A stretch of 37,957 bases of DNA from Acidimicrobiaceae bacterium. Its GTDB lineage: Bacteria; Actinomycetota; Acidimicrobiia; Acidimicrobiales; Ilumatobacteraceae. The stretch lies in the NCBI GenBank assembly GCA_003154135.1, contig PMCN01000131.1:800-38756 (forward strand), written 5' to 3'. The notes below the pieces were generated by a model. It saw only the letters and a list, made by a program, of their open reading frames with translations, ran no database searches and was not told the origin of the DNA. Shown piece by piece: positions 3,397-31,514 of this stretch (positions are counted from its first letter, which is position 1; each line of letters starts with the position of its first letter). Position numbers and translations under genes: made by a program.

Positions 3397-3436
3397 TGGT
3401 TTTCCGGCGCGCCCGCTAGCCTTGCAATCCGCCGCT

Positions 3437-3510
3437 GGGGCTATAGCTCAGTCGGTTAGAGCGCATCCCTGATAAGGATGAGGTCACAAGTTCGATTCTT
3501 GTTAGCCCCA
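3437..3510 (+). tRNA. tRNA-Ile (anticodon GAU)
   Basis: GGGGCTA/TAGCCCC acceptor stem, D arm GCTC-AGTCGGTTA-GAGC, anticodon arm CATCC-CTGATAA-GGATG, T arm ACAAG-TTCGATT-CTTGT, discriminator A. CCA is not encoded. Confidence 0.95.
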
Positions 3511-3537
3511 CTACGAAGTACCTGCTCGACGAGTTGC

Positions 3538-12073: not shown

Positions 12074-13393
12074 TCAGCTCGTGCGCACGACTTCGACGAG
12101 GCCCATGCCCACTCGGAGGTCGAGCGTGACCGAGCCGGCCGGCGTCGAAGGGGTGATCGGCGCGGTGGCCTGACCGGTGGGGTCGCTGGCCGCGGGGCCG
12201 GTGAGGTCGCGCGTGTCGGATTGGCGCATGCCGCTCGCGACCTCGCGGTCGTCGATGCGAATGGAGCCCATGCCCACCGCCGAGTGGACGTGCACGGTGA
12301 CACCGCTCGGCACTGTGACCAGCAGCCGCCCCGTGCCCACTTCGGCAGTGATGTGCAGATCTCCGGTGAACGCATCGGCCGGCAACACGCCCAGGTCGAT
12401 GCTGAGGTCTCCGGCCGCGAGGTACTGGGTCTGCTGGGCCGCTGCGGCGGTGGCCGGTTGCACGCTGCGCGTTCCGGTGCCGCCATCGAGGCGCGGCTGC
12501 GCCACGCACAGCCCGATCAACGCCATGGCGAGCAGGGTGAACGGCACGGGCAGGAACCAACTGCGGTTGACGACGGTGCTCACCGCGAGCGCCGCCATCA
12601 CGATCGCGATCGCCGTGACCACCACCCACAGGGTGGGGATGGTCCACACCCCCATCGCACCGAAGAGGGCGACGACCCCGACGAACAGGGTGGCCACGCC
12701 CACCCCGACGAGACCGATGTAGCGCCGCGGCCGCCGGGGGGCGACGGTCGTGCTCGTGCCAGTCGTGGCGACGGGGGTGCTCGTGCCGATCGTGGTGAGC
12801 CGCTCCGTGATGTCTGCGTACCCGGTGCCCGCAGCCGAACCCATCGTCGGCGGCGGCAGCGGCGACCCGGCCGGCATCGGCGTCGCGGGAGGTGACGCGA
12901 CGCCGTCGTGACGGTGCCCGAGCGACGTGCTGGCCCACACGAGCACACCGAGGGCGATGAGGGCAACGCCCCACGGCGCGCCGCGGAACAAGAACCAGCT
13001 GCCCAACGTGCCCAGGCCGCCGGCGAGCAGCACGAGACAGATGGCGGCCAGCACGGGCAGGCGGCGGCGATCGCGCACGATGACGCTCAACGGCTGGGCC
13101 TGCGACGGGTCGGCGGGCAGCAGCGCCCAGGCGGCGATGTAGACGAGGATGAACACGGGCAGCACGAAGGCTGCGACCACCGAGGCGATGCGCGTGGTCT
13201 TCAGTTCGAAGCCGTAGGCACGGCTCACGCCGGCCACCACGCCGCCGAGCTTGCCGCCGTCGGGGCCGCCCTTGGGGACGCGCGACAGCGGCACGTTGCG
13301 CCAGCCATGGGGGCCGTGGTGCTGCCGGCCGTGTTCCTGGTCGTGTTCCTGGCCGTGTTCCTGTGCGGGGGGATCGATCATCTGGGTGCTCAT
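12074..13393 (-). CDS. PspC-domain membrane protein with LiaF-like (toastrack) C-terminal domain and His-rich N-terminus
   Basis: Track ORF 12074..13393. PspC motif LSRVPKGGPDGGKLGGVVAGVSRAYGFELKTTRIASVVAAFVLPVFILVYIAAWALLP, several TM helices, C-terminal GDLSIDLG...GDLHITAEVGTGRLLVTVPSGVTVHVHSAVGMGSIRID...VTLDLRVGMGLVEVV. Confidence 0.85.
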   Translation of the reverse strand: MSTQMIDPPAQEHGQEHDQEHGRQHHGPHGWRNVPLSRVPKGGPDGGKLGGVVAGVSRAYGFELKTTRIASVVAAFVLPVFILVYIAAWALLPADPSQAQPLSVIVRDRRRLPVLAAICLVLLAGGLGTLGSWFLFRGAPWGVALIALGVLVWASTSLGHRHDGVASPPATPMPAGSPLPPPTMGSAAGTGYADITERLTTIGTSTPVATTGTSTTVAPRRPRRYIGLVGVGVATLFVGVVALFGAMGVWTIPTLWVVVTAIAIVMAALAVSTVVNRSWFLPVPFTLLAMALIGLCVAQPRLDGGTGTRSVQPATAAAAQQTQYLAAGDLSIDLGVLPADAFTGDLHITAEVGTGRLLVTVPSGVTVHVHSAVGMGSIRIDDREVASGMRQSDTRDLTGPAASDPTGQATAPITPSTPAGSVTLDLRVGMGLVEVVRTS

Positions 13394-13457
13394 GTTCGCA
13401 GTGCTCCTTGCTCGTCCTCATCATCCGCCGTCGCCGCACCCCTGCCATCGGGGCCGC

Positions 13458-13487
13458 ACCCTGAACCGACCCTGAACCGCCCCTGAG
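13458..13487. promoter_or_regulatory. Tandem 11-nt direct repeat (ACCCTGAACCG x2 plus a partial third) in the divergent PspC / PspC-kinase promoter region
   Basis: accctgaaccg accctgaaccg cccctgag read directly. Lies between the divergent starts at 13393 (-) and 13556 (+). GACAAT at 13543-13548 sits 7 nt before the ATG at 13556, which is leaderless-like geometry. Confidence 0.35.
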
Positions 13488-13555
13488 ATGCAGGCGGCGA
13501 CTGCCCGGGTCGGGCCCCGATGCCATCGCGGCCGCATCGTGCGACAATCGAGTCG

Positions 13556-14764
13556 ATGCACGACTCACCGCTGGCCTTCCCTCGTCAGGACGACGGGCGC
13601 GCGATCGCGGGCGTGGCCGGCGGGTTCGCGCGTCGGCACGGCCTCGACCCGTTGGTGGTGCGCGGCGCGCTGGTGGTGCTCTCCTTCGCTGCCGGGCTGG
13701 GCCTCGTGCTGTACGTGGCCGGTGCCGCGCTGTCGACCGAGCCCGACCCGAACGCCGCGACGCAGCCGCCCGATGCGAGGCGCAACGTGTCGGTGGCGCT
13801 CATCGCGGCAGGGCTGCTGCTGGTGGTGCGGTCGACCGGAGTCTGGTTGGGTGACGCGGTGATGGTGCCGTTGGCCGTGCTGGCGGCCGGCGTGGTGGTG
13901 CTCGGGGTGGTGCGCTCCGGCGGCGACGACGCAACGGAGACGCAGCTGGCCGGCCTGGTCGCCGGGCGGCACGCGCGGCTGCGCGTGATGCTCGGTGCAC
14001 TGCTGCTCGCCGTCGGCCTCGTATCGGTGGGCGCCGGGCGTCAGGTGTCGACCTCGGTGCGCGTGGGGGTGTTCGCCGCCGCGCTCAGCATCGTGGGTGT
14101 TGCGCTGCTGTTGGGTCCGTGGGTCGCCGGGTTCGCGCAGTCGGCGGCGGAGGAGCGGCGCGAGCGAATCCGTGCGCAGGAGCGCGAAGCGATGGCCGCA
14201 CACCTTCACGACTCGGTGCTGCAGACGCTCGCGCTCATCCAGCGCACCGCCGACGACCCGCGGCGCACCGCCAGCCTGGCGCGCCAGCAGGAGCACGAGC
14301 TGCGGGCATGGTTGTTCGGCGGCGGCGATGCCGTCGGCGCCACGTTCGCGAGTGCGCTGCGTGCGATGGCGTTCGAGGTGGAGCAGCGCCACGACGTGCG
14401 CGTCGAGGTGGTCACCGTGGGCGACACCCCGCTCGACGAGGTGTCGAGTGCGTTGCTCGCGGCCACCCGCGAAGCGTGCGTGAACGCCGCGAAGCACAGC
14501 GGGGTGCAGGATGTGTCGGTCTACGCCGAAGTCGCAGTGGGCACGCCCGGCGCGGGCACGCTGGAGTGCTTCGTGCGCGACCGTGGCCGTGGCTTCGATC
14601 CGACGCTGGCTGCACCCGACCGGCACGGCATCACGCAGTCGATCGAGGCCAGGCTCGAGCGTGTCGGTGGTGGCGCGGTCATCGACTCGGCCCCGGACCA
14701 GGGCACAGAGGTGCACCTCAGCGTGCCGTTGCGGGTCGACGCCGGTTCCGGGGTGGTCTCGTGA
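13556..14764 (+). CDS. PspC-domain sensor histidine kinase (HisKA_3 / LiaS-NarX type)
   Basis: ATG at 13556 in track ORF 13520..14764. N-terminal PspC motif (GRAIAGVAGGFARRHGLDPLVVRGALVVLSFAAGLGLVLYV), multiple TM helices, H-box AAHLHDSVLQTLALIQ, HATPase region (NAAKHSG..., RDRGRGFD, GGGAVIDSAPDQGTEV). Confidence 0.87.
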   Translation: MHDSPLAFPRQDDGRAIAGVAGGFARRHGLDPLVVRGALVVLSFAAGLGLVLYVAGAALSTEPDPNAATQPPDARRNVSVALIAAGLLLVVRSTGVWLGDAVMVPLAVLAAGVVVLGVVRSGGDDATETQLAGLVAGRHARLRVMLGALLLAVGLVSVGAGRQVSTSVRVGVFAAALSIVGVALLLGPWVAGFAQSAAEERRERIRAQEREAMAAHLHDSVLQTLALIQRTADDPRRTASLARQQEHELRAWLFGGGDAVGATFASALRAMAFEVEQRHDVRVEVVTVGDTPLDEVSSALLAATREACVNAAKHSGVQDVSVYAEVAVGTPGAGTLECFVRDRGRGFDPTLAAPDRHGITQSIEARLERVGGGAVIDSAPDQGTEVHLSVPLRVDAGSGVVS

Positions 14765-15399
14765 GCGACGTCACGGTGTTCCTGGTCGACGACCACGCGC
14801 TGTTCCGTGCCGGCGTGAAGGCCGAGCTGGGCGACGGCGTGCGGGTGCTGGGCGAGGCCGGCACCGTGGTCGAGGCGATCGCCGGAGTGCTGGCCCTGCG
14901 ACCCGACGTGGTGCTGCTCGACGTGCACCTGCCCGACGGTGGAGGGAGGGCGGTCATCGAGGGCGTCGTGCGCGAGTGGCCCGAGGCCGTGTTCCTCGCG
15001 CTGTCGGTGTCGGATGCGGCCGACGACGTGGTCGCGGTCATCCGCGCCGGTGCCCGTGGCTACGTCACCAAGACCATCGACCCACCCGCGCTGATCGACG
15101 CGGTCCGTCGTGTGCACGACGGCGACGCCGTGTTCTCGCCCCGTCTCGCCGGCTTCGTGCTCGACGCGTTCTCCGGCCAGGTACCGCCGTCGAGCGACCC
15201 CGAGCTCGACCTGCTCACCGTTCGCGAACAGGAGGTGATGCGGCTCATCGCACGCGGCTACACCTATCGCGAGGTGGCCACCCGCCTGCACCTGTCGGTG
15301 AAGACCGTCGAGACGCACGTGTCGGCCGTGCTGCGCAAGCTGCAACTCTCGAACCGTCGCGAGTTGTCGGCCTGGGCCTCCACGCGTCGACTGCTCTAG
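14761..15399 (+). CDS. LuxR/NarL-family response regulator
   Basis: GTG at 14761 overlaps the kinase stop (GTGA); frame of track ORF 14119..15399. Receiver VFLVDDHALFRAG...DVVLLDVHLPDGGG...YVTK; GerE HTH LTVREQEVMRLIARGYTYREVATRLHLSVKTVETHVSAVLRKL. Confidence 0.92.
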   Translation: MSDVTVFLVDDHALFRAGVKAELGDGVRVLGEAGTVVEAIAGVLALRPDVVLLDVHLPDGGGRAVIEGVVREWPEAVFLALSVSDAADDVVAVIRAGARGYVTKTIDPPALIDAVRRVHDGDAVFSPRLAGFVLDAFSGQVPPSSDPELDLLTVREQEVMRLIARGYTYREVATRLHLSVKTVETHVSAVLRKLQLSNRRELSAWASTRRLL

Positions 15400-15408
15400 C
15401 GCGACCGA

Positions 15409-15972
15409 CTACTTCGCGGCCCAGTCGGTGAAGGTGATGGTGGCGTCGGGTGCCTGGCTGACGAAGCGCACGCGGTCGATCTTCTTGCCTTTGGGCACGA
15501 GGAACAGCGAGCAGCTCTGGTAGCTCTCGCCCGGGTTCAACAGGCCGCTGTCGTTGCCCGGGCACTTGGCGAACCCGGAGCCGCTGAGGTCGAGGATGAT
15601 GGTGGACGACACGGACTCGCCCTTGGTGTCCTCCACGTCGAGCGGCAGGTTGCGCGCGACGGCGTTGCTGCCCTTGTTGGTGAACTTGGCGTCGACGTAG
15701 TACGGCGTGCTGTTCTTGGCCGTGTCGTCGAGCTGCAGACCGGCGGCGGCCAACTCGTCCTGCGTGCCGACCCGTACGGCCACGACGGTGACTGCGATGG
15801 TGGTGTTGGCGGCGGGGATCGTGCCGTCGGCCGACGCGGCGTACGACACGGTCGCCTCGGTGCCGAGGGCAAGCTTGGTTCCACCGCTGCTGGAGCTGCC
15901 ACAGGCCGCCATGGTGAGTGCTGCGATGGTGACGGCGGCGGTCGCGAGCATGAGTGATCGGGTTCTCATGCG
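15409..15972 (-). CDS. Secreted lipoprotein, Ig-like (DUF4352-like) fold
   Basis: ATG at 15972 in track ORF 15409..16050. MRTRSLMLATAAVTIAALTMAAC lipobox, then beta-rich YYVDAKFTNKGSNAVARNLPLDVEDTKGESV. Confidence 0.7.
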   Translation of the reverse strand, partial: RMRTRSLMLATAAVTIAALTMAACGSSSSGGTKLALGTEATVSYAASADGTIPAANTTIAVTVVAVRVGTQDELAAAGLQLDDTAKNSTPYYVDAKFTNKGSNAVARNLPLDVEDTKGESVSSTIILDLSGSGFAKCPGNDSGLLNPGESYQSCSLFLVPKGKKIDRVRFVSQAPDATITFTDWAAK

Positions 15973-16012: not shown

Positions 16013-17038
16013 TCAGGCGGTGAGGAAGCGGATCTCGCGGGCCACTTCACCGAAGCGCTCGAGGCGGTCGGGATGGCTCATCAGTGCGTTGTAGAACACG
16101 AGCCGCGAGGCGACGCCCTGGTACTTGTCGACGAGACGCGGCGCGAGTTCGCCCCAGGTGGCCTCGGTGCAGAACGTGTCGATGTGATCGTCGGTGATCT
16201 CAGCGGCCATCGCCGCTGCGTCGCCGGCCTTCTGGTGACGGCGGATGCGCTCGGTGGTGCCTTCGAAGCCGGCCTCGTCCCAGATGAACGCGTAGTTGGG
16301 CGTGCTGCCGTAGAAGCTGAGCATGCCGCGCAGCAACTCGCGATCGTGGGCGCGCTCCTCGTCGGTGTCGCCGACGATGATGTTGACCGGCACGATGATC
16401 GCGACATCGGCGGGGTCGCGTCCCTCCTCGGCCGCACCCTGGGCGACGTTGGGCACCACGTGCCGTTGCAGGTAGCCGGGCTCGCCGATCGGATGCACGT
16501 GCACACCGTCGGCCACCTGCCCGGCCATGCGCAGCATCCACGGGTTGACGGCGGCGACGTCGACCTTCGGGTCGGGCGCATCGATGGGGCCAGGACTCCA
16601 CTGCCGGTTGAGCCAGGTGAGCTCGTAGTAGTCGCCGCGATGGTCGAGGGGTGCCCCGCGGAAGCCGGCGAAGCACGCCTTCACCGCGAGCACGTAGTCG
16701 CGCAGGCGAGGACCCGGAGGGTCGAAGGGCACGCCGTAGCGGCGCACGACGTGCGTGCGCACCTGCGTGCCGAGTCCGAGCCGGAACCTGCCGCCAGTGG
16801 CCTCCTGCAACTCCCACGCGGTCTGCGCGGTGACCATCGGGCTGCGCGGGAAGGCGACGGCGACGCCGGTGCTCAACGCGAGCGACGGTGCGGCCACCGC
16901 GGCGGCGGCGGCCGACAGGTATGCGGTGCGCCCACCCTCGGTGAACAGGATGCCGTCGACACCGGAAGCCGCGACGGCCTTGGCCACCGGCGCCATCTGC
17001 TGCAGCGGTCGAGGGGTGAGCATCACGTCGACGTCCAT
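16013..17038 (-). CDS. Luciferase-like (LLM class) F420-dependent oxidoreductase
   Basis: Track ORF 16013..17038. ...GVDGILFTEGGRTAY...RFRLGLGTQVRTHVVRRYGVPFDPPGPRLRDYV... Only 28 nt downstream of the adaptor-2 stop on the same strand. Confidence 0.88.
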   Translation of the reverse strand: MDVDVMLTPRPLQQMAPVAKAVAASGVDGILFTEGGRTAYLSAAAAAVAAPSLALSTGVAVAFPRSPMVTAQTAWELQEATGGRFRLGLGTQVRTHVVRRYGVPFDPPGPRLRDYVLAVKACFAGFRGAPLDHRGDYYELTWLNRQWSPGPIDAPDPKVDVAAVNPWMLRMAGQVADGVHVHPIGEPGYLQRHVVPNVAQGAAEEGRDPADVAIIVPVNIIVGDTDEERAHDRELLRGMLSFYGSTPNYAFIWDEAGFEGTTERIRRHQKAGDAAAMAAEITDDHIDTFCTEATWGELAPRLVDKYQGVASRLVFYNALMSHPDRLERFGEVAREIRFLTA

Positions 17039-17066: not shown

Positions 17067-18632
17067 CTACCCGGCCTGGAGCACCTTGGTCGCCGTGGTG
17101 ATGCCGTCGCCCTTGATGGCGGTCTCGCCGTTGGCGTTGCCGGCCACCGTGACGGTGACCCACGTGGCCGAACCGTCGGCGCCCACCACCTGCACGGCGT
17201 AGGTGCCGTCGAGGCGTGAGGCCAGTGCGGCGCTCGGCACGAGGAGCACCGAGGTGGTCTGGCTGCGGGTGACGGTGACCTTCACGGTTGCACCGTTGCT
17301 GGTGCCCTGCAGCGGTGCCGCCGGCGTGATGACAGCCTCGACCGTCGCCGTGCCGTTCTGCACCACGCTGCGCAGCTCCGTCACCGTGCCTTCGACCGTG
17401 CCCACCTTCAGCGTGAGACCGGGCACGACGAACGACTCGTCACCGGTGGGAACCGCGATGACCACCTGCTGGCTGCTCCCGGTGAGCGACAGCACGGTGG
17501 TGCCGTCGCCGATCGCCTGGCCGACGGTCACCGACACCGCCGAGACGGTGGCGATGGCGGGCAGGAACACGACCGAACCCAACGTGACCGAACCGGTGAC
17601 GTCGAGGCCGTAGCCGGTCTGCCACCGCTCGACGGCAGCCTTGGTGTTCGAGTCGAAGTGCTCGTCGACCGTCATCTTGTTGTCGCGGTCGTAGCCGAGT
17701 GCAACCAGGCTGAGCTCGAGCTGGCGCACGTCGGGCCCGTCGGTGATGCCCGTCTTCAAGGTGCGCCAGGCCGGGAGGCTGCCGGCCATGGCCACCACGG
17801 GGCGGCTCTCGACCGAGTAGAGGATGGTGCCCAGCCGCACATCGCTGCCGACCGTGATGACCGAGGTGACCACCTGGGTGACCGTGGTGGAGCCCGTGGA
17901 ACCGGTGCCACCGGTGCCCGCGCTGCCGGTGCCGCCGGTGCGCGAGCCGCCGGTGCCACCGCGGGGGGAGGTCGTGGTGGTGGAGCCGCTGTCGACGCAT
18001 GGCTGCGTCGTGGTGGTGCCCGCCGCCGACGTGGTCGACGTGGTCGGGCCGCCGGTGCTGGACGAGGTGACGCTCGGGTCGACGGTCGTGGTCGTTGATG
18101 TCGACGACGTTGACGATGTCGTTGGTGTCGATGTCGTTGGTGTGGTCGTCGGGCCTGAGCCGGTGTTGACCGGGTTGGTGTCGGGCACGCTGTTGCACGT
18201 TCCCGAGCCGGCACCGGATCCGCCGCGACCGGGTGGCAGCGCATTCACGACACCGTTCACGGCAGCGTTCACGGCAGCAAGGCCGGCGGCACCTGTGGCT
18301 GCGCTCGTGCCGGTGCGGCCGTTGCCCGATGTCGTGCCGGTCGACGGGGCCTTCACGGTGACTGCGTTCTGGCCCTCGATGCGGTGCAGCACGTTGGTGA
18401 CGTCGTCGAGCACCACCGAGCCGTTGACCGATTCGGTGGTGGCGAGCGAGCCGGATGTGACCTGCACGGGTCGCAGCACGCTGGGCGCTGCTTTCGATGC
18501 GTTCGAGGTGTGCCTGCGGGAGGCGATCACCGCCACCGCGCCAGTGGCGAGCACGACGACCAGCGCCGCGGCGATGGCGGCGTTGCGTCGGGTGTTGGGG
18601 TTCCGGGTTGCCGGTTGACGAGTCGTGGCCAT
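17067..18632 (-). CDS. HlyD/MFP-like periplasmic adaptor 2 with one peptidoglycan-binding (PG_binding_1) domain and a Thr/Ser/Gly-rich insertion
   Basis: ATG at 18632 inside track ORF 17067..19289; the upstream part is Arg/His/Pro junk overlapping the permease gene. N-terminal TM anchor AAIAAALVVVLATGAVAVIA; PGB motif DVRQLELSLVALGYDRDNKMTVDEHFDSNTKAAVERWQTGYGLDVTGSV; MFP-like C-terminus LLVPSAALASRLDGTYAVQVV...WVTVTVAGNANGETAIKGDGI. Confidence 0.82.
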   Translation of the reverse strand: MATTRQPATRNPNTRRNAAIAAALVVVLATGAVAVIASRRHTSNASKAAPSVLRPVQVTSGSLATTESVNGSVVLDDVTNVLHRIEGQNAVTVKAPSTGTTSGNGRTGTSAATGAAGLAAVNAAVNGVVNALPPGRGGSGAGSGTCNSVPDTNPVNTGSGPTTTPTTSTPTTSSTSSTSTTTTVDPSVTSSSTGGPTTSTTSAAGTTTTQPCVDSGSTTTTSPRGGTGGSRTGGTGSAGTGGTGSTGSTTVTQVVTSVITVGSDVRLGTILYSVESRPVVAMAGSLPAWRTLKTGITDGPDVRQLELSLVALGYDRDNKMTVDEHFDSNTKAAVERWQTGYGLDVTGSVTLGSVVFLPAIATVSAVSVTVGQAIGDGTTVLSLTGSSQQVVIAVPTGDESFVVPGLTLKVGTVEGTVTELRSVVQNGTATVEAVITPAAPLQGTSNGATVKVTVTRSQTTSVLLVPSAALASRLDGTYAVQVVGADGSATWVTVTVAGNANGETAIKGDGITTATKVLQAG

Positions 18633-18640
18633 GTGCGTGC

Positions 18641-19861
18641 TCAGTTCGACCGCAGTGCTTCGGTGGGTGGCAGGCGGGCTGCTCGCGCGGCCGGGTACAG
18701 GCCGGCGATGCCGCCGATGATGACCGCGGCGACGAGGCCGCCGAGGATGGCCACCGGTGGTATCACCACCTGCCAGTGCTGGGTGTTGGCGTAGATCGCG
18801 GTGACGATGGCGCCGAGCACCACGCCCACCAGACCGCCGGCGCCGGCGAGGAGCACGGCCTCGGTGAGGAACTGGCGGCGGATGTGCGCCTTGGTCGCGC
18901 CGAGCGCGCGGCGCAGGCCGATCTCGGTGCGGCGTTCGATGACCGCGATGACCATCACGTTGGCGATGCCGATGCCGCCGACGAGCAGCGCGACTGCGCC
19001 GAGGCCGAGGAACAGCGACGTGAACGCAGTGCTCGCCGCCTGCTGCGCAGCCAGCGCGTCGGACGGGCGTGACACCTGTACCTCTTCGGGGGTGGCGGGG
19101 TTGATGGTGCTGGCGAGCACGCCGCTCACCGCGTCGGTGGCGCCGTCGGCGGTGCGCACGTAGATGGTGGCCGGTGCGATCGCAGCGCCGACGATGTAGG
19201 TCTCGGCCGTGACGAGGCCCACCACCGCCGCACGGTCGAGGCCCGGTGCCGCGGCCACCGGTTGCATGATGCCGATGACGTCGAACCACTTGTCGGCGAT
19301 GTACACGCGCAGCCCGTCGCCGACGCTGGTGATGCCCAGCTTCTGGGCTGCCGTGGCGCCGAGCACGACGGCCGGGTACTGCGCGGTCGCCGCGTCGAGG
19401 AACTTCCCGTCGGCGAGCTTGGCGTGCAGCGTGTCGAGCAGGCCGGGGTCGGCGGCGAAGACACCGATGCCGTTGGTGATGCCCACGTCGATCTGGTCGG
19501 TGCGGCGCACGGTGGCCGTGACAGTGGTGAGCGAGCTGACTGCGGTGACGGGTCCGATGCGGCCGGTCATCGCGACCGCGGTGTCGGGCAGCGTGCCGGT
19601 GCCGCGACCGAAACCCTGGCCCGGGGCCACCTCGAGCAGGTTGGTGCCGAGTGCCTTGATCTTGGAGTTGAGATCGGCCTGCGAGGAGGCCGAGAGGCCC
19701 AGCACGCCCACCATCGCGGCGATGCCGATGGCCACGCCCAGCGTGGAGAGGCTGGTGCGCAGCCGTCGTGAGCGCAGGCCGAGCGAGCCCACGCGCAGCA
19801 CGTCGCCGGGGCGTAGGCGCGACCGCGTGGGGGCCAGGGTGGGGGCGACGGCGACCGTCAC
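18641..19861 (-). CDS. MacB-type ABC permease (FtsX fold with large extracytoplasmic domain)
   Basis: Track ORF 18641..19861. TM1 LSTLGVAIGIAAMVGVLGL, a ~200-aa extracytoplasmic domain, then FtsX region FLGLGAVALLVGGIGIANVMVIAVIERRTEIGLRRALGATKAHIRRQF...GLYPAARAARLPPTEALR. The GTG start overlaps the ATPase stop (GTGA). Confidence 0.92.
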   Translation of the reverse strand: MTVAVAPTLAPTRSRLRPGDVLRVGSLGLRSRRLRTSLSTLGVAIGIAAMVGVLGLSASSQADLNSKIKALGTNLLEVAPGQGFGRGTGTLPDTAVAMTGRIGPVTAVSSLTTVTATVRRTDQIDVGITNGIGVFAADPGLLDTLHAKLADGKFLDAATAQYPAVVLGATAAQKLGITSVGDGLRVYIADKWFDVIGIMQPVAAAPGLDRAAVVGLVTAETYIVGAAIAPATIYVRTADGATDAVSGVLASTINPATPEEVQVSRPSDALAAQQAASTAFTSLFLGLGAVALLVGGIGIANVMVIAVIERRTEIGLRRALGATKAHIRRQFLTEAVLLAGAGGLVGVVLGAIVTAIYANTQHWQVVIPPVAILGGLVAAVIIGGIAGLYPAARAARLPPTEALRSN

Positions 19862-20568
19862 GATGCGGCCATCTCCGTCTCGACCTGCACGTCGCGCTCG
19901 TCGCTCTCGACGCGGCCGTCTCGCATGCTGATGCGGCGCGGCAACGACGATGCGAGCTCGCGATCGTGGGTGATGATGATGACCGTGTTGCCCTCGGAGT
20001 GCAGGTCGCGCACGAGGTCCATCACGGCCACGCCCGACTTCGTGTCGAGGTTGCCGGTGGGCTCATCGGCGAGCACGATGGCCGGCCGATTGACGATGGC
20101 GCGGGCGATGGCGACGCGCTGACGCTCGCCACCGCTCAGCTTGCTCGGCACGTGGTGCATGCGGTTGCCGAGCCCGACGCGTTCGAGTGCCTCGGCGGCC
20201 TCCTTGCGACGTTGCGACGGCGCGACGCCGCGGTACAGCAGGCCGTTGGCCACGTTGTCGAGTGCGGTCATGCCGTCGAGCAGGAAGAACTGCTGGAACA
20301 CGAAACCGAGCAACTGCGACCGCACCGCGGAGAGCTGGCGGTCGGACATGTTGGCGGTGGCCACGCCGGCCAGCAGCACCTCGCCCGACGTGGGCCGGTC
20401 GAGCGTGCCGATGATGTGCAGCAGCGTGGTCTTGCCGGAACCTGAGGGGCCGACGATGCCCACCATCTCACCCTGGTCGACGCGCAGCGACACGGTGTCG
20501 AGCGCGACGACGGGCGGTTCGCCGGGGTACGTCTTCACGACGTCGACGATCTCGAGCGCCGCAGTCAC
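19858..20568 (-). CDS. MacB/LolD-type ABC ATP-binding protein
   Basis: Track ORF 19858..20568. Walker A GPSGSGKTT, Q-loop, signature LSGGERQRVAIARAI, Walker B IVLADEPTGNLD, H-loop ITHD. Confidence 0.95.
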   Translation of the reverse strand: MTAALEIVDVVKTYPGEPPVVALDTVSLRVDQGEMVGIVGPSGSGKTTLLHIIGTLDRPTSGEVLLAGVATANMSDRQLSAVRSQLLGFVFQQFFLLDGMTALDNVANGLLYRGVAPSQRRKEAAEALERVGLGNRMHHVPSKLSGGERQRVAIARAIVNRPAIVLADEPTGNLDTKSGVAVMDLVRDLHSEGNTVIIITHDRELASSLPRRISMRDGRVESDERDVQVETEMAAS

Positions 20569-20617
20569 GACTGCACCGTGACGTTCACGACGGCACCGTG
20601 ACGTTCACGACGGCACC
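20565..20617. repeat. 20-nt tandem repeat, 2 full copies plus a 13-nt partial third, spanning adaptor-1 stop and ATPase start
   Basis: tcacgacTgcaccgtgacgt (20565-84) / tcacgacGgcaccgtgacgt (20585-604) / tcacgacggcacc (20605-17), read directly. On the coding (minus) strand each copy ends in GTCGTGA. Confidence 0.85.
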
Positions 20618-22149
20618 ACGACTTTCGACCCGGCGGTGACGCCGGTGCCCGTGATCGACACGAAGCCGTCGGCGTACATGCCGGGCTTCACGCCGACGAG
20701 CTTGGTGGCGTTGGTGCCGTCGGTGTTCTGACCGGTGACCACCTCGACGGCGAACCCGCCCTCGGCGAGTGCCACGAGTGCGCTCACGGGCACCACGAAC
20801 GCCTGCTTCTCCTCCTGCGCCACCACTTGCAAGGTGACGGGGATCTGCACGAACGCGTCGACGGTCGCAGGCACGCCGGCGACGTCGATGGTGATGGGCA
20901 CCGAGGGCGTGGCACCGGGTGTGTTCGAGGCGTTGGTGGCGACGTTGCCGACCTTCACCACCGTGCCGGGCGACACGGTGCCGTCGGGGAACATCACGTC
21001 GATGGTGGCGCCGACGACGAAGGTGGTGCCGCCCACCGGCGCCGTGGTGGTGATCTCGCGGGCGGCAGTGGTGAGGCTGGTGACCACCGTGTCACCCGTG
21101 GGGATGGCGCCCTCGGCCACGGTCGGTGTGCCGGTGAACAGGCCACCGGGCACCACGATGAAGCTGCCCACCGGCACCGTGACGCTGGCAGGATCGGCAG
21201 GGATGCCGAGCGAACCCAACCACTGCACCACCGCTGCCGATGTGGCGAGATCCCAGTGGTCGTCGATGGTGAGCACCTTGCCCGGGTCGAAGCCGGCCGT
21301 CGACAGGAACGTCTCGAGCAACTTCACGTCGACACCGTCCGACGACTTCGCGTTCAGGGCCCGGGCCAGTGACGGGGTGGTGCTGGCGTCGCCCTCGATG
21401 GCGACGACGGGGAAGCCGTTCTGCCAGAAGAGCACCGTGCCGGTGGTGACGGCGGTGCCCGCAGGTGCGATGTGTGTGATGGCGCCGTGTGCCGGGTTGG
21501 TGGCCGGCAGCAGGAACGAGCGGGCCGTCTGACGGCCCTGCAGCAGCGACGTGCCGGCGCCGACACCCGAGCCCACCGAGGCCGACAGCGTGTCGACCAG
21601 CAGTTCACCGGGGACGAACACGATCTCGCCCTTGGTGACCTTGCCGTCGCCGGTGAGGCCGAGGCTGTCCTCCCACGCGGTGACCGCGGTGGCGGTGGCC
21701 GTGTCGTAGGTCTCGTCGATGGCCATGGTGCCGTTCGGGTCGAAGCCGAGCATCACCAGGTTCGCCTTCAACTGACGCACGTCGATGCCGGTGGTGACAC
21801 CCTTGGAGAGGTCGCGGTACGAGGGCACGTCACCGATCATGGCGACGACGGGCGTGCCGTCGATGGAGGCGACCACCGTGCCGGCGGCGATCTTGGTGCC
21901 GGTGGGCACGATGCTCGTCACCGTGCCGGCCACCGGTGACGAGACGGTGACCGAGGTGGTGAAGCCCAGCGTCGCGGTGGTCTGGTTGTAGGCGACGAGG
22001 TCGCGCTGGGTGATCTCGGCAGTGGTGGTCGTGGCCGTGTGGGTGGACGTGTCGCTCGATGCGGTGGAGGGCCGGGTGGTGAGCCACACCACGACTCCGG
22101 CCGCGGCAAGGACTGCGAGGATCGCGACCGACGTCGCAAGCTTCTTCAC
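20605..22149 (-). CDS. HlyD/MFP-like periplasmic adaptor 1 carrying two peptidoglycan-binding domains
   Basis: Track ORF 20605..22149 (GTG start). TM anchor VAILAVLAAAGVVVWL; lipoyl-like SSPVAGTVTSIVPTGTKIAAGTVVASIDG. PGB1 DVRQLKANLVMLGFDPNGTMAIDETYDTATATAVTAWEDSLGLTGDGKV; PGB2 DVKLLETFLSTAGFDPGKVLTIDDHWDLATSAAVVQWLGSLGIP. C-terminus AFVVPVSALVALAEGGFAVEVV...GFVSITGTGVTAGSKVVVPS. Confidence 0.87.
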   Translation of the reverse strand: MKKLATSVAILAVLAAAGVVVWLTTRPSTASSDTSTHTATTTTAEITQRDLVAYNQTTATLGFTTSVTVSSPVAGTVTSIVPTGTKIAAGTVVASIDGTPVVAMIGDVPSYRDLSKGVTTGIDVRQLKANLVMLGFDPNGTMAIDETYDTATATAVTAWEDSLGLTGDGKVTKGEIVFVPGELLVDTLSASVGSGVGAGTSLLQGRQTARSFLLPATNPAHGAITHIAPAGTAVTTGTVLFWQNGFPVVAIEGDASTTPSLARALNAKSSDGVDVKLLETFLSTAGFDPGKVLTIDDHWDLATSAAVVQWLGSLGIPADPASVTVPVGSFIVVPGGLFTGTPTVAEGAIPTGDTVVTSLTTAAREITTTAPVGGTTFVVGATIDVMFPDGTVSPGTVVKVGNVATNASNTPGATPSVPITIDVAGVPATVDAFVQIPVTLQVVAQEEKQAFVVPVSALVALAEGGFAVEVVTGQNTDGTNATKLVGVKPGMYADGFVSITGTGVTAGSKVVVPS

Positions 22150-22153
22150 CGGG

Positions 22154-22921
22154 TCACCCCGCCGTCGTGGTGGTGCTGCCGTTGTTGGCGGCGAACGCCT
22201 TGGTGATGATGGCCGAGCAGGCGTCGACCGCCTTCTTCACGGTGGGGTCGGTGGCATCGAGGCCGAGCTGGTCGATGAGCCGGGTGGTGGGGTCGAAGCC
22301 TGCTCCGCCGGGCGCGTTCTGGCCGTTGCCGCCGGGCTGGAACGACCCGGGAGGGCCACCGAAGCCACCGTTGGGCACACTGCCGTCCGGGCCGCCGTTG
22401 CCGCCGGTCTGGAACGACCCGGGCGGGCCACCGTTGCCGCCGGCGCCACGTCCGAAGGTGATGTCCTTCACGTTGGGCAAACCGTTGGTGCGCAGGCAGG
22501 CGGTGAAGTCGTTGAACGCAGCCTGGAGGACGGTGGGGTCGAAGTTGCCACGACGGTTGCCGAACAGGTTGACACCCTGGATGAGCGAGCCGCAGGCCTT
22601 CTGGGCGGTCTGGAAGGCGGTGGACCGACGATCCACGCCGGAGTCGCGGCCGAGGCCTCCCCCGGTCATGTTGCCGTTGGCGTCGAAGGTGGGGTCGGCC
22701 ATGTTGACGCCGTTGGTGCGCATGCAGGCGGCGTAGGCGAGGATCTTGTCCTGCGCGTCCTTGGCGCTGATCGTGGTGGTGGTGGCGCCGCCGGTGGGGT
22801 CGCCGCTCGACAGCGTGGCCACCTTGCTGGCGGCGCTGCTGCTACCGCCACAGGCGGCGAGCAGCAGGAGCAGGGACACACCGAGCAGCGCTGCGCGCCG
22901 GGGGGACAGGGCAGATGTCAT
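22154..22921 (-). CDS. Secreted lipoprotein with two-fold internal repeat (4 Cys) and Gly/Pro-rich linker
   Basis: Track ORF 22154..22921. Lipobox LLLLAAC. Repeated module AYAACMRTNGV...AQKACGS / DFTACLRTNGL...AVDACSA. Duplicated GGPPGSFQ(T/P)GGNG. The stop lies 4 nt before the adaptor-1 start. Confidence 0.78.
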   Translation of the reverse strand: MTSALSPRRAALLGVSLLLLLAACGGSSSAASKVATLSSGDPTGGATTTTISAKDAQDKILAYAACMRTNGVNMADPTFDANGNMTGGGLGRDSGVDRRSTAFQTAQKACGSLIQGVNLFGNRRGNFDPTVLQAAFNDFTACLRTNGLPNVKDITFGRGAGGNGGPPGSFQTGGNGGPDGSVPNGGFGGPPGSFQPGGNGQNAPGGAGFDPTTRLIDQLGLDATDPTVKKAVDACSAIITKAFAANNGSTTTTAG

Positions 22922-22952
22922 GGCGTCACCGTGCGCCGGGGTGCTGTGAGTT

Positions 22953-22983
22953 TCCTGAGAGTCCGGTGAGAGTTCGGTGAGAG
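22953..22983. promoter_or_regulatory. Three TGAGAG hexamers phased at 11 nt, upstream of the lipoprotein/ABC operon
   Basis: TGAGAG at 22956-61, 22967-72 and 22978-83, each preceded by TYCGG. On the operon sense strand they read CTCTCA, 35-62 nt upstream of the ATG at 22921. They lie in the intergenic region shared with the divergent D-aminoacylase gene. Confidence 0.3.
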
Positions 22984-31407: not shown

Positions 31408-31481
31408 GGGGACGTAGCTCAGTTGGCTAGAGCACTTGCTTTGCATGCAAGAAGTCGTGGGTTCGAGTCCCATCGTCTCCA
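31408..31481 (+). tRNA. tRNA-Ala (anticodon UGC)
   Basis: Acceptor GGGGACG/CGTCTCC with the G3:U70 alanine identity pair, anticodon arm CTTGC-TTTGCAT-GCAAG, T loop TTCGAGT, discriminator A. Confidence 0.95.
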
Positions 31482-31514
31482 CCGAGCCGCGCGGCGGCCT
31501 GCAAGGATCGGTGC

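Follow-up and report, generated by a model that had tools for sequence, protein, structure and literature searches.

The 37,957-nt stretch of Acidimicrobiaceae DNA analysed here (the window; all positions are numbered along it) carries an operon of five minus-strand genes at 17067-22921, encoding in order a small lipoprotein, an adaptor protein (adaptor 1), an ABC ATPase, a permease and a second adaptor (adaptor 2). The system belongs both to the MacB superfamily and, without the alpha-hairpin, to the fold family of the adaptor proteins. With roughly even confidence, we read the operon as encoding an inducible MacAB-like (type VII ABC) pump that would dock to the wall of a presumed monoderm and expel substrates on the extracytoplasmic side. 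An earlier note, written from the sequence alone, had described a MacB-type engine flanked by two adaptors with peptidoglycan-binding (PGB) domains and led by a four-cysteine lipoprotein. Our analysis goes beyond that description in three respects: in adaptor 1, as modelled, the PGB modules stand at the hairpin position, the lipoprotein is the most constant partner of the cassette, and a conserved repeat array lies upstream of the operon.

Open reading frames and third-codon-position G+C (GC3) bear out the five packed genes as the earlier note had placed them. The intergenic spacing is 4, 36, -4 (a GTGA overlap) and 8 nt, and the GC3 of the operon (0.85-0.90, in a window of about 70% G+C) shows the codon-position bias of real genes. 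For the lipoprotein (255 aa) and adaptor 1 (514 aa), the starts agree with those called independently on an identical metagenome contig. The nearest relatives of the operon products come from metagenome-assembled genomes of the Ilumatobacteraceae/Acidimicrobiia, a group described as Gram-positive. The gene order is conserved in Acidimicrobiia, where it recurs in 37 of the 37 loci with at least 50% adaptor-1 identity, and the five-gene arrangement is therefore far beyond chance.

The two large proteins have in common an N-terminal transmembrane (TM) helix, a beta-barrel and a membrane-proximal domain. Adaptor 1 (20605..22149, minus strand) has in addition two lipoyl-like domains in tandem, both with a PGB insert, and adaptor 2 (521 aa; 17067..18632, minus strand) has a linker and a single lipoyl-like domain, likewise with a PGB insert. 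The first insert of adaptor 1 (aa 121-172; 21634..21789, minus strand) and the insert of adaptor 2 (aa 299-350; 17583..17738, minus strand) belong to the Pfam family PG_binding_1 (PF01471), with 43.9 and 41.2 bits against a gathering cut-off of 23 bits. The second insert of adaptor 1 (aa 272-319; 21193..21336, minus strand), which the earlier note had counted as a further PGB domain, reaches 20.4 bits (E 6e-4) as an isolated segment, under the threshold, and is backed by an internal duplication and by model helices at residues 273-284 and 301-313. The sequence indicates that this copy arose by internal duplication of a unit made up of half a lipoyl domain, a PGB module and the other lipoyl half.

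In our analysis the adaptor fold was recognised from structure. The AlphaFold model of adaptor 1 (pLDDT 86.6, pTM 0.70) matches TMexC, MexA, AcrA, BesA, ZneB, CusB, MacA, Spr0693 and EmrA in a Foldseek search of the PDB, with probabilities of 0.97-1.0 and E-values down to 1e-11. There are 56 matches at E<=1e-3, of which the best 50 are all adaptor proteins, and the top TM-score among the matches listed is that of BesA (TM 0.64, rmsd 5.5 A). The model has the lipoyl, beta-barrel and membrane-proximal domains of the HlyD/periplasmic adaptor fold. The long alpha-hairpin of the HlyD family is absent from it, as in its precedent BesA, and the inserts are the short helices of the PGB module. Each helical insert has four strands before it and four after it. 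Because this is the topology of the adaptor lipoyl domain, the PGB inserts of adaptor 1 are predicted to occupy the position of the alpha-hairpin.

A similar placement is suggested for adaptor 2, which is paralogous to both adaptor-1 repeats (43% and 32% identity). Positions 144-300 (of 322) of the TIGR01730 RND_mfp profile align to aa 362-512, right after the PGB domain, so this module is independently placed where the hairpin of adaptor 2 would normally lie; the profile match itself is under threshold (32.6 against 94.9 bits). Curated family profiles do not reach the two window adaptors: Biotin_lipoyl scores 19.7 bits against a cut-off of 22.1, and the HlyD models of Pfam and NCBIfam give no match. 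Among 24 adaptor relatives, however, Biotin_lipoyl is found in 12 and HlyD_3 in three (best 1.5e-8). When the adaptor-1 family profile was searched against PDB sequences, only the PGB domain was matched (1LBU, E 0.008). Sequence alone does not reach the solved adaptors, and the fold search was needed. The adaptor assignment of the earlier note is thus upheld by the model of adaptor 1, with its Foldseek matches, and by the Biotin_lipoyl and HlyD_3 domains of relatives, while the curated family profiles stay below threshold.

Two further observations concern the adaptors. In adaptor 2, a low-complexity linker of about 160 residues (aa 96-255; window 17868-18347), of which 29% are Thr, 19% Gly and 16% Ser, stands in place of the first lipoyl/PGB unit of adaptor 1 and may serve as a spacer that spans the wall or is glycosylated. 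Proteins of the family with 660-830 aa (for example P0244, P0313 and P0338) match the query in four to seven separate stretches, and some adaptors appear to carry more than two lipoyl/PGB units.

The engine is of the MacB type, as had been proposed. The ABC ATPase (236 aa; 19858..20568, minus strand; ABC_tran, 4e-34) is MacB/LolD/FtsE-like and has intact motifs, namely GPSGSGKT at aa 40 (Walker A), LSGGE at 144 (signature), LADEPT at 166 (Walker B) and ITHD at 199 (H-loop). Its scores against the LolD, MacB and FtsE models are similar and all lie below the respective cut-offs (LolD 234.3 against 307.75 bits, FtsE 213.6 against 264.85 bits, MacB nucleotide-binding domain 226 bits). The permease (406 aa; 18641..19861, minus strand) consists of TM1, a MacB periplasmic core domain (MacB_PCD, aa 36-244, 3.6e-21) and an FtsX-type bundle of three TM helices (FtsX, aa 287-399, 1.9e-21). 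Its closest relatives in the PDB are the MacB structures 5GKO (1.2e-33), 5LIL and 5NIK, and Spr0695 (5XU1). An intact nucleotide-binding subunit, together with TM1, a large external core and an FtsX-type bundle, places the pair in type VII (the MacB superfamily). It is not a MacB equivalog (NF007826), since the genes are separate and score 226 bits (nucleotide-binding domain) and 113 bits (permease) against a cut-off of 966. The permease, with its 406 aa and single FtsX bundle, also differs from the ten-TM permeases of BceAB-type modules.

The MacAB-TolC systems of E. coli, Acinetobacter and Aggregatibacter share with this operon the MacB periplasmic core and FtsX-type TM bundle of the permease, the lipoyl, beta-barrel and membrane-proximal domains of the adaptor, and an N-terminal TM helix as in MacA. 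They differ in that here the ATPase forms a polypeptide of its own, an outer-membrane channel is lacking, two different adaptors and an obligatory small lipoprotein are present, and PGB modules stand in place of the absent TolC-contacting alpha-hairpin. No channel gene belongs to the cassette, in agreement with the earlier note. Gram-positive parallels are YknWXYZ of Bacillus, Spr0693-0694-0695 of S. pneumoniae and AS-48 EFGH, which combine a separate ATPase, a MacB-type permease and a membrane-fusion adaptor without an outer membrane. YknWXYZ also has an extra small component, YknW, and purified YknX has been reported to bind peptidoglycan (PMC5985334). However, a prominent alpha-hairpin is retained in YknX and Spr0693, neither of which has a PGB domain (PMC4446572, PMC4338810), YknW is a polytopic membrane protein and not a lipoprotein, and the Gram-positive MacAB-like systems have one adaptor. 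BesA, the RND adaptor of Borrelia burgdorferi and the only described adaptor without a hairpin (PMC4446572), resembles adaptor 1 in this respect and in the TM-score given above, but its partners are an RND pump and an outer-membrane channel, and it has a single lipoyl domain and no PGB insert. The need for two different adaptors from one operon is known from TriABC-OpmH of Pseudomonas aeruginosa (PMC4446572), which unlike the present system is an RND transporter of a diderm with hairpins in both adaptors. The reviews drawn on here for adaptors and MacB systems name no adaptor with a PGB domain. They find it puzzling that known Gram-positive adaptors unexpectedly retain their hairpins, and regard the role of membrane-fusion proteins in bacteria that lack an outer membrane as an open question (PMC4446572, PMC4338810, PMC5985334). 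In the literature searched we found no functional study of PGB-bearing adaptors or of this operon, as the earlier note had supposed.

The small lipoprotein (255 aa; 22154..22921, minus strand) has a signal peptide and a lipobox, LLAAC, with Cys24 (sequence MTSALSPRRAALLGVSLLLLLAAC), as bacterial lipoproteins do, followed by two helical hairpins of the form Cys-x-Arg-x-x-Gly ... Cys, a Gly-rich linker and a Thr-rich tail. The lipobox cysteine and the four mature cysteines to which the earlier note had drawn attention (Cys66, 110, 142 and 235) are invariant in 42 homologues, and nearly all distant homologues with a placeable start have lipoboxes. The sequence forms an internal repeat. Repeat 1 holds Cys66 and Cys110 (A-C-M-R-x-N-G-V-x-M-x-D-P-T-F-D ... 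A-C), and repeat 2 holds Cys142 and Cys235 (A-C-L-R-x-x-G-L ... D-x-C). In the AlphaFold model there are five helices, a core with pLDDT 81-95 per ten-residue block (overall 67), and a disordered Gly-rich linker that parts the two halves. Because each cysteine pair sits on two neighbouring helices, the model suggests two disulfide-stapled helical hairpins. The lipoprotein belongs to no described family: Pfam and NCBIfam hold no significant match, a Foldseek search of the PDB with the model found no fold match (best E 3.5), and the best 120 of 328 homologues are all unnamed or 'hypothetical'. Weak and non-significant Pfam matches to COX17 (CHCH fold) were seen in 22 of the 42 homologues (best E 0.04), and the Cys-Met-Arg...Met motif of repeat 1 is retained even in Streptomyces; metal binding is at most remotely possible.

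Homologues of this system are numerous. A full-database search with adaptor 1 returned 4445 clusters at 50% identity, of which 401 were at E<1e-30, and the size classes of the family match one, two or more PGB units. In a survey with one genome per species we confirmed at least 507 adaptor-1 relatives and fetched 78 loci, which agrees with the recurrent architecture claimed in the earlier note. The locus scan used the closer alignment (A1), which biases the survey toward Acidimicrobiia, since the broad alignment (A3, 29-53% identity) was too divergent for it. Among loci with at least 50% adaptor-1 identity, the lipoprotein gene lies upstream in 33/33, the ATPase and permease are present in 37/37, and a second adaptor follows the permease in 32/32. 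The corresponding counts for distant loci are 29/36 (by tblastn), 39/41 and 38/41 for ATPase and permease, and 9/31. A profile hidden Markov model located the lipoprotein gene in 75 of 81 loci; for five of the other six the upstream sequence is missing. The conserved unit is thus the lipoprotein, the PGB adaptor, the ATPase and the permease. Two adaptors, as the earlier note described the architecture, are not its general state: the widespread core has one, and the second is a lineage-specific addition in Ilumatobacteraceae and some other Acidimicrobiia. A four-gene version with the same layout (BB341_RS33850-RS29860) is found on pSCL4 of Streptomyces clavuligerus, where both Cys-x-Arg repeats occur in a small 'hypothetical protein' whose lipobox, further upstream, is not annotated. 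This gene, BB341_RS33850 (locus L081, NZ_CP016560.1, 5048-5743), is annotated with 142 aa, a truncated call of the family lipoprotein, and the lipobox LAVAGC is located upstream of its annotated start. In at least three metagenome-assembled genomes there are two cassette copies each (L017/L030, L033/L067 and L012/L042), which suggests paralogous pumps with different specificities.

Upstream of the operon there are four tandem 11-bp direct repeats, CTCTCACCGAA, CTCTCACCGGA, CTCTCAGGAAA and CTCACAGCACC (22940..22983, minus strand), a putative response-regulator binding array. It spans -62 to -19 relative to the lipoprotein ATG, within a 168-bp divergent intergenic region. Most related loci hold comparable arrays, of three to four units with the consensus TTCTCAGSnnn, equally far from the lipoprotein start; among them are loci with an adaptor of only about 31% identity and with different neighbouring genes. 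A position-weight matrix gives the window array 34.6 bits, and nowhere else in the 38 kb does a site reach 15 bits. Arrays at or above this level occur in 39 of 53 upstream regions, while the 14,848 control segments hold about 12 other such sites. A matrix made from distant loci only gives the window site 27.9 bits, a score exceeded by five of the 14,848 control segments, and puts 22 of 28 close loci above the 99th percentile of the controls; the converse test detects 15 of 25.

Most of the strongest 'other' sites lie 18-33 nt upstream of cassette-linked response-regulator genes of the OmpR/PhoB family. These are followed by histidine kinase genes, and most of the kinases have an external loop of about 130 residues, which sets them apart from the intramembrane-sensing kinases of BceAB systems. 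Such regulators lie within 8 kb of the cassette in 21 of the 78 loci, about 12 of them divergent and immediately upstream, and likewise on pSCL4. The linked regulators of Ilumatobacteraceae are nearest to M. tuberculosis PhoP (266-270 bits, with four of six base-contacting residues identical), and those of other lineages to PrrA. The direct repeats of TCACAGC that PhoP binds are separated by a strict 4-bp spacer, and its binding is tighter to tri- and tetra-repeats (PMC4832192). Unit four of the window array contains an exact TCACAGC, and the array has the form of an OmpR/PhoB-type site, that is, at least two direct repeats with an 11-bp period near the -35 position. We therefore regard it as a putative binding site of a PhoP/PrrA-like response regulator of this family. 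The same array precedes most of the linked PhoP/PrrA-like regulator genes examined, which points to control of the operon by an autoregulated two-component system. The likeness to promoters of the M. tuberculosis PhoPR regulon extends to the 11-bp period, the half-site and the conservation of most base-contacting residues in the linked regulators; unlike those promoters, the dominant unit here is TCTCAG(G/C), and the linked regulator of other lineages is closer to PrrA. The MprA box, taken to be a TCTCAGGG-like sequence, was not used as evidence.

A -10-like hexamer, CACGGT (22928..22933, minus strand), sits 6 nt before the lipoprotein ATG, which suggests that the lipoprotein mRNA is leaderless. 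By eye, a CACnnT hexamer stands at the same distance before the start in many related loci. A scan for sigma-70 consensus promoters returned none, and a terminator scan gave two terminator-like sites on the wrong strand, in line with chance expectation. In S. clavuligerus, the intergenic region between the two-component system and the lipoprotein (L081, 5090-5160) holds GGAACGACAG-like tandem repeats, unlike the array of Acidimicrobiia, and these may be a lineage-specific operator. A strong array copy (20.8 bits) at 3430-3462 of locus L025 lies 21 nt upstream of a cassette-unrelated open reading frame for a 527-aa secreted or lipoprotein-like product, which may be another member of the same regulon.

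The pump that we favour would work as follows. By homology with the mechanotransmission of MacB, a permease dimer and the separate ATPase would drive movements of the large external domain. The two paralogous adaptors, anchored by their N-terminal helices, would be expected to form a ring around that domain, as do MacA, YknX and Spr0693 (PMC5985334), possibly with both adaptors in one ring, for which TriABC, a pump with two adaptors, offers a parallel. Where Gram-negative adaptors have a coiled-coil hairpin for contact with the outer-membrane channel, the PGB modules would fix the distal end of the ring to the wall, and the ring would guide substrates outward from the membrane surface or the inner-wall zone. 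Candidate substrates are amphipathic peptides, antibiotics and lipid-like molecules. The small lipoprotein would be an obligatory accessory subunit. Expression is probably switched on by a PhoP/PrrA/MprA-like two-component system encoded outside the window, through the tandem 11-bp repeats, which would overlap the -35 position of a leaderless promoter. The expulsion of membrane-active compounds is proposed by analogy with Gram-positive MacAB-like systems, and two-component induction fits with it; such pumps protect against peptide toxins (PMC5985334). We also considered a stronger version, in which this is a monoderm tripartite pump whose hairpin was exchanged for wall-binding modules, whose lipoprotein supplies the hairpin or exit-duct function in trans by capping, gating or extending the ring, and which is an output of PhoPR/MprAB-type signalling across Actinomycetota. 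In that full form the proposal is unlikely.

Several points weigh against the expulsion pump. Its oligomeric state, wall binding and transport are predictions only, and the host is presumed to be monoderm from the Ilumatobacteraceae affiliation of the DNA. The structural model covers adaptor 1, so that the fold of adaptor 2 is argued from homology and the sub-threshold TIGR01730 match, and the second PGB domain of adaptor 1 scores under the Pfam threshold. No cognate regulator is encoded in the window, and the position-weight matrix was built from the sequences that it describes, though cross-validation holds. The constant lipoprotein could be a substrate or cargo and not a subunit. No substrate, resistance, biosynthetic or toxin gene is conserved beside the cassette, and a role in detoxification is consequently argued from analogy only.

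The possibility that the lipoprotein is cargo leads to a Lol-like machine, in which the engine would extract acylated molecules from the outer leaflet and pass them on to the wall-anchored adaptors to be placed within the wall or outside it. Candidate cargo includes the lipoprotein of the operon itself, other lipoproteins and glycolipids. The lipoprotein gene, the most constant partner, is always the first in the operon, the top NCBIfam match of the ATPase is LolD, the permease also matches LolC/LolE/LolF, and LolCDE is itself a member of the MacB superfamily (PMC5985334) with a mechanotransmission-type architecture. However, the scores lie far under the equivalog cut-offs (for LolCE 59.7 against 362.45 bits, with LolD as given above), and among solved structures the permease is much nearer to MacB than to LolC (120 against 38 bits). 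Lol systems also have no membrane-fusion adaptors, and no LolA- or LolB-like carrier is present. We consider this reading unlikely.

The earlier note had also raised an FtsEX-like mechanical regulator, whose ATP-driven movements the wall-bound adaptors would relay to a peptidoglycan hydrolase or synthase, encoded elsewhere, that is thereby activated or positioned; it would control wall remodelling and move no substrate. FtsEX belongs to the same ABC superfamily and is likewise of mechanotransmission-type architecture, PGB domains are typical of wall enzymes (the nearest matches of those found here are SleB and a D-Ala-D-Ala carboxypeptidase), and envelope-type two-component regulation would fit. 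The suggestion did not hold up in the profile searches, where the FtsX models score 23-30 bits against cut-offs of 225-255 and the external domain, which differs from that of FtsX, is MacB_PCD. Neither FtsEX nor LolCDE uses membrane-fusion adaptors. No hydrolase, EnvC or coiled-coil activator is encoded in the cassette or conserved beside it, and the adaptors consist of the adaptor fold and PGB modules only, with no catalytic domain. This makes such a regulator quite unlikely.

A pump devoted to the export of a secreted peptide or bacteriocin of the cell's own making, or to immunity against it, comparable to AS-48 EFGH or the lactococcin-972 ABC system, would account for the matches of the ATPase to the lactococcin-972 and darobactin export ATPase models (about 1e-58 to 1e-60), and immunity systems made of MacB plus an adaptor exist in Gram-positives (PMC5985334). 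These matches are nonetheless below the cut-offs and no better than those to LolD, MacB or FtsE, while precursor-peptide or maturation genes are not conserved beside the cassette, whose flanks vary from locus to locus, so that this explanation is very unlikely. Metal handling, in which the Cys/Met-containing lipoprotein would bind copper or another metal and the pump would clear it from the envelope, draws on the COX17 matches, the conserved Cys-Met-Arg...Met of repeat 1 and the fold matches of the adaptor to the metal-pump adaptors CusB and ZneB, but is highly improbable given that the COX17 matches are not significant, the four cysteines form two helix-to-helix pairs suggestive of disulfides, no metal-sensor regulator, P-type ATPase or multicopper oxidase is linked, and the CusB and ZneB matches merely reflect the common adaptor fold.

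Downstream of the operon, an F420 LLM oxidoreductase gene follows after 28 nt and a further lipoprotein gene, with its true start at 15972, after another 40 nt. The earlier note had proposed that both might share the transcript. The gaps are as it gave them and there may be read-through transcription from the cassette, but neither gene is part of the conserved module: the oxidoreductase follows the cassette in the six closest loci only, and the downstream lipoprotein was found in none of the other surveyed loci. Luciferase-like (F420-type) oxidoreductases stand beside the cassette in the window (16013-17038) and in loci L009, L012, L016 (on the same contig as L002) and L018, as different paralogues on different sides. 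The downstream paralogue is 78-84% identical in the six close loci, and an upstream divergent one 35-38% identical in four others. Their recurrence may be a coincidence in LLM-rich genomes or a loose functional link. We rejected the oxidoreductase as a functional partner on the grounds that it is adjacent in six loci only and that elsewhere a different paralogue lies on the other side.

Some 1.6 kb downstream of the cassette there is a cluster (12074-15399) that looks like a LiaFSR/Psp-like envelope-stress unit. It contains a PspC-domain histidine kinase (13520-14764, plus strand) followed by a LuxR-type response regulator (14761-15399, plus strand), and a divergent PspC-domain protein (12074-13393, minus strand). 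The kinase/LuxR pair is not conserved beside the cassette in two other loci. As a regulator of the cassette it was rejected, for this lack of conservation nearby and because LuxR-type regulators do not fit 11-bp direct repeats. Elsewhere, the window starts inside a gyrA-like gene (31-1902), and genes for tRNA-Ile(GAT) (3437-3511) and tRNA-Ala(TGC) (31408-31483) stand isolated, 28 kb apart and outside any rRNA operon.

This family is a natural experiment, in that a large actinobacterial group has the adaptor hairpin replaced by a peptidoglycan-binding module. The replacement directly suggests that the adaptor ring docks to the wall by its distal end. With the family comes an undescribed lipoprotein that is nearly always present, and a putative regulatory site that would link the pump to envelope signalling of the PhoP/PrrA/MprA-like kind. 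Versions of the system occur in culturable Streptomyces and Kitasatospora, which puts its binding, assembly, substrate range and regulation within reach of standard genetic and biochemical tests.

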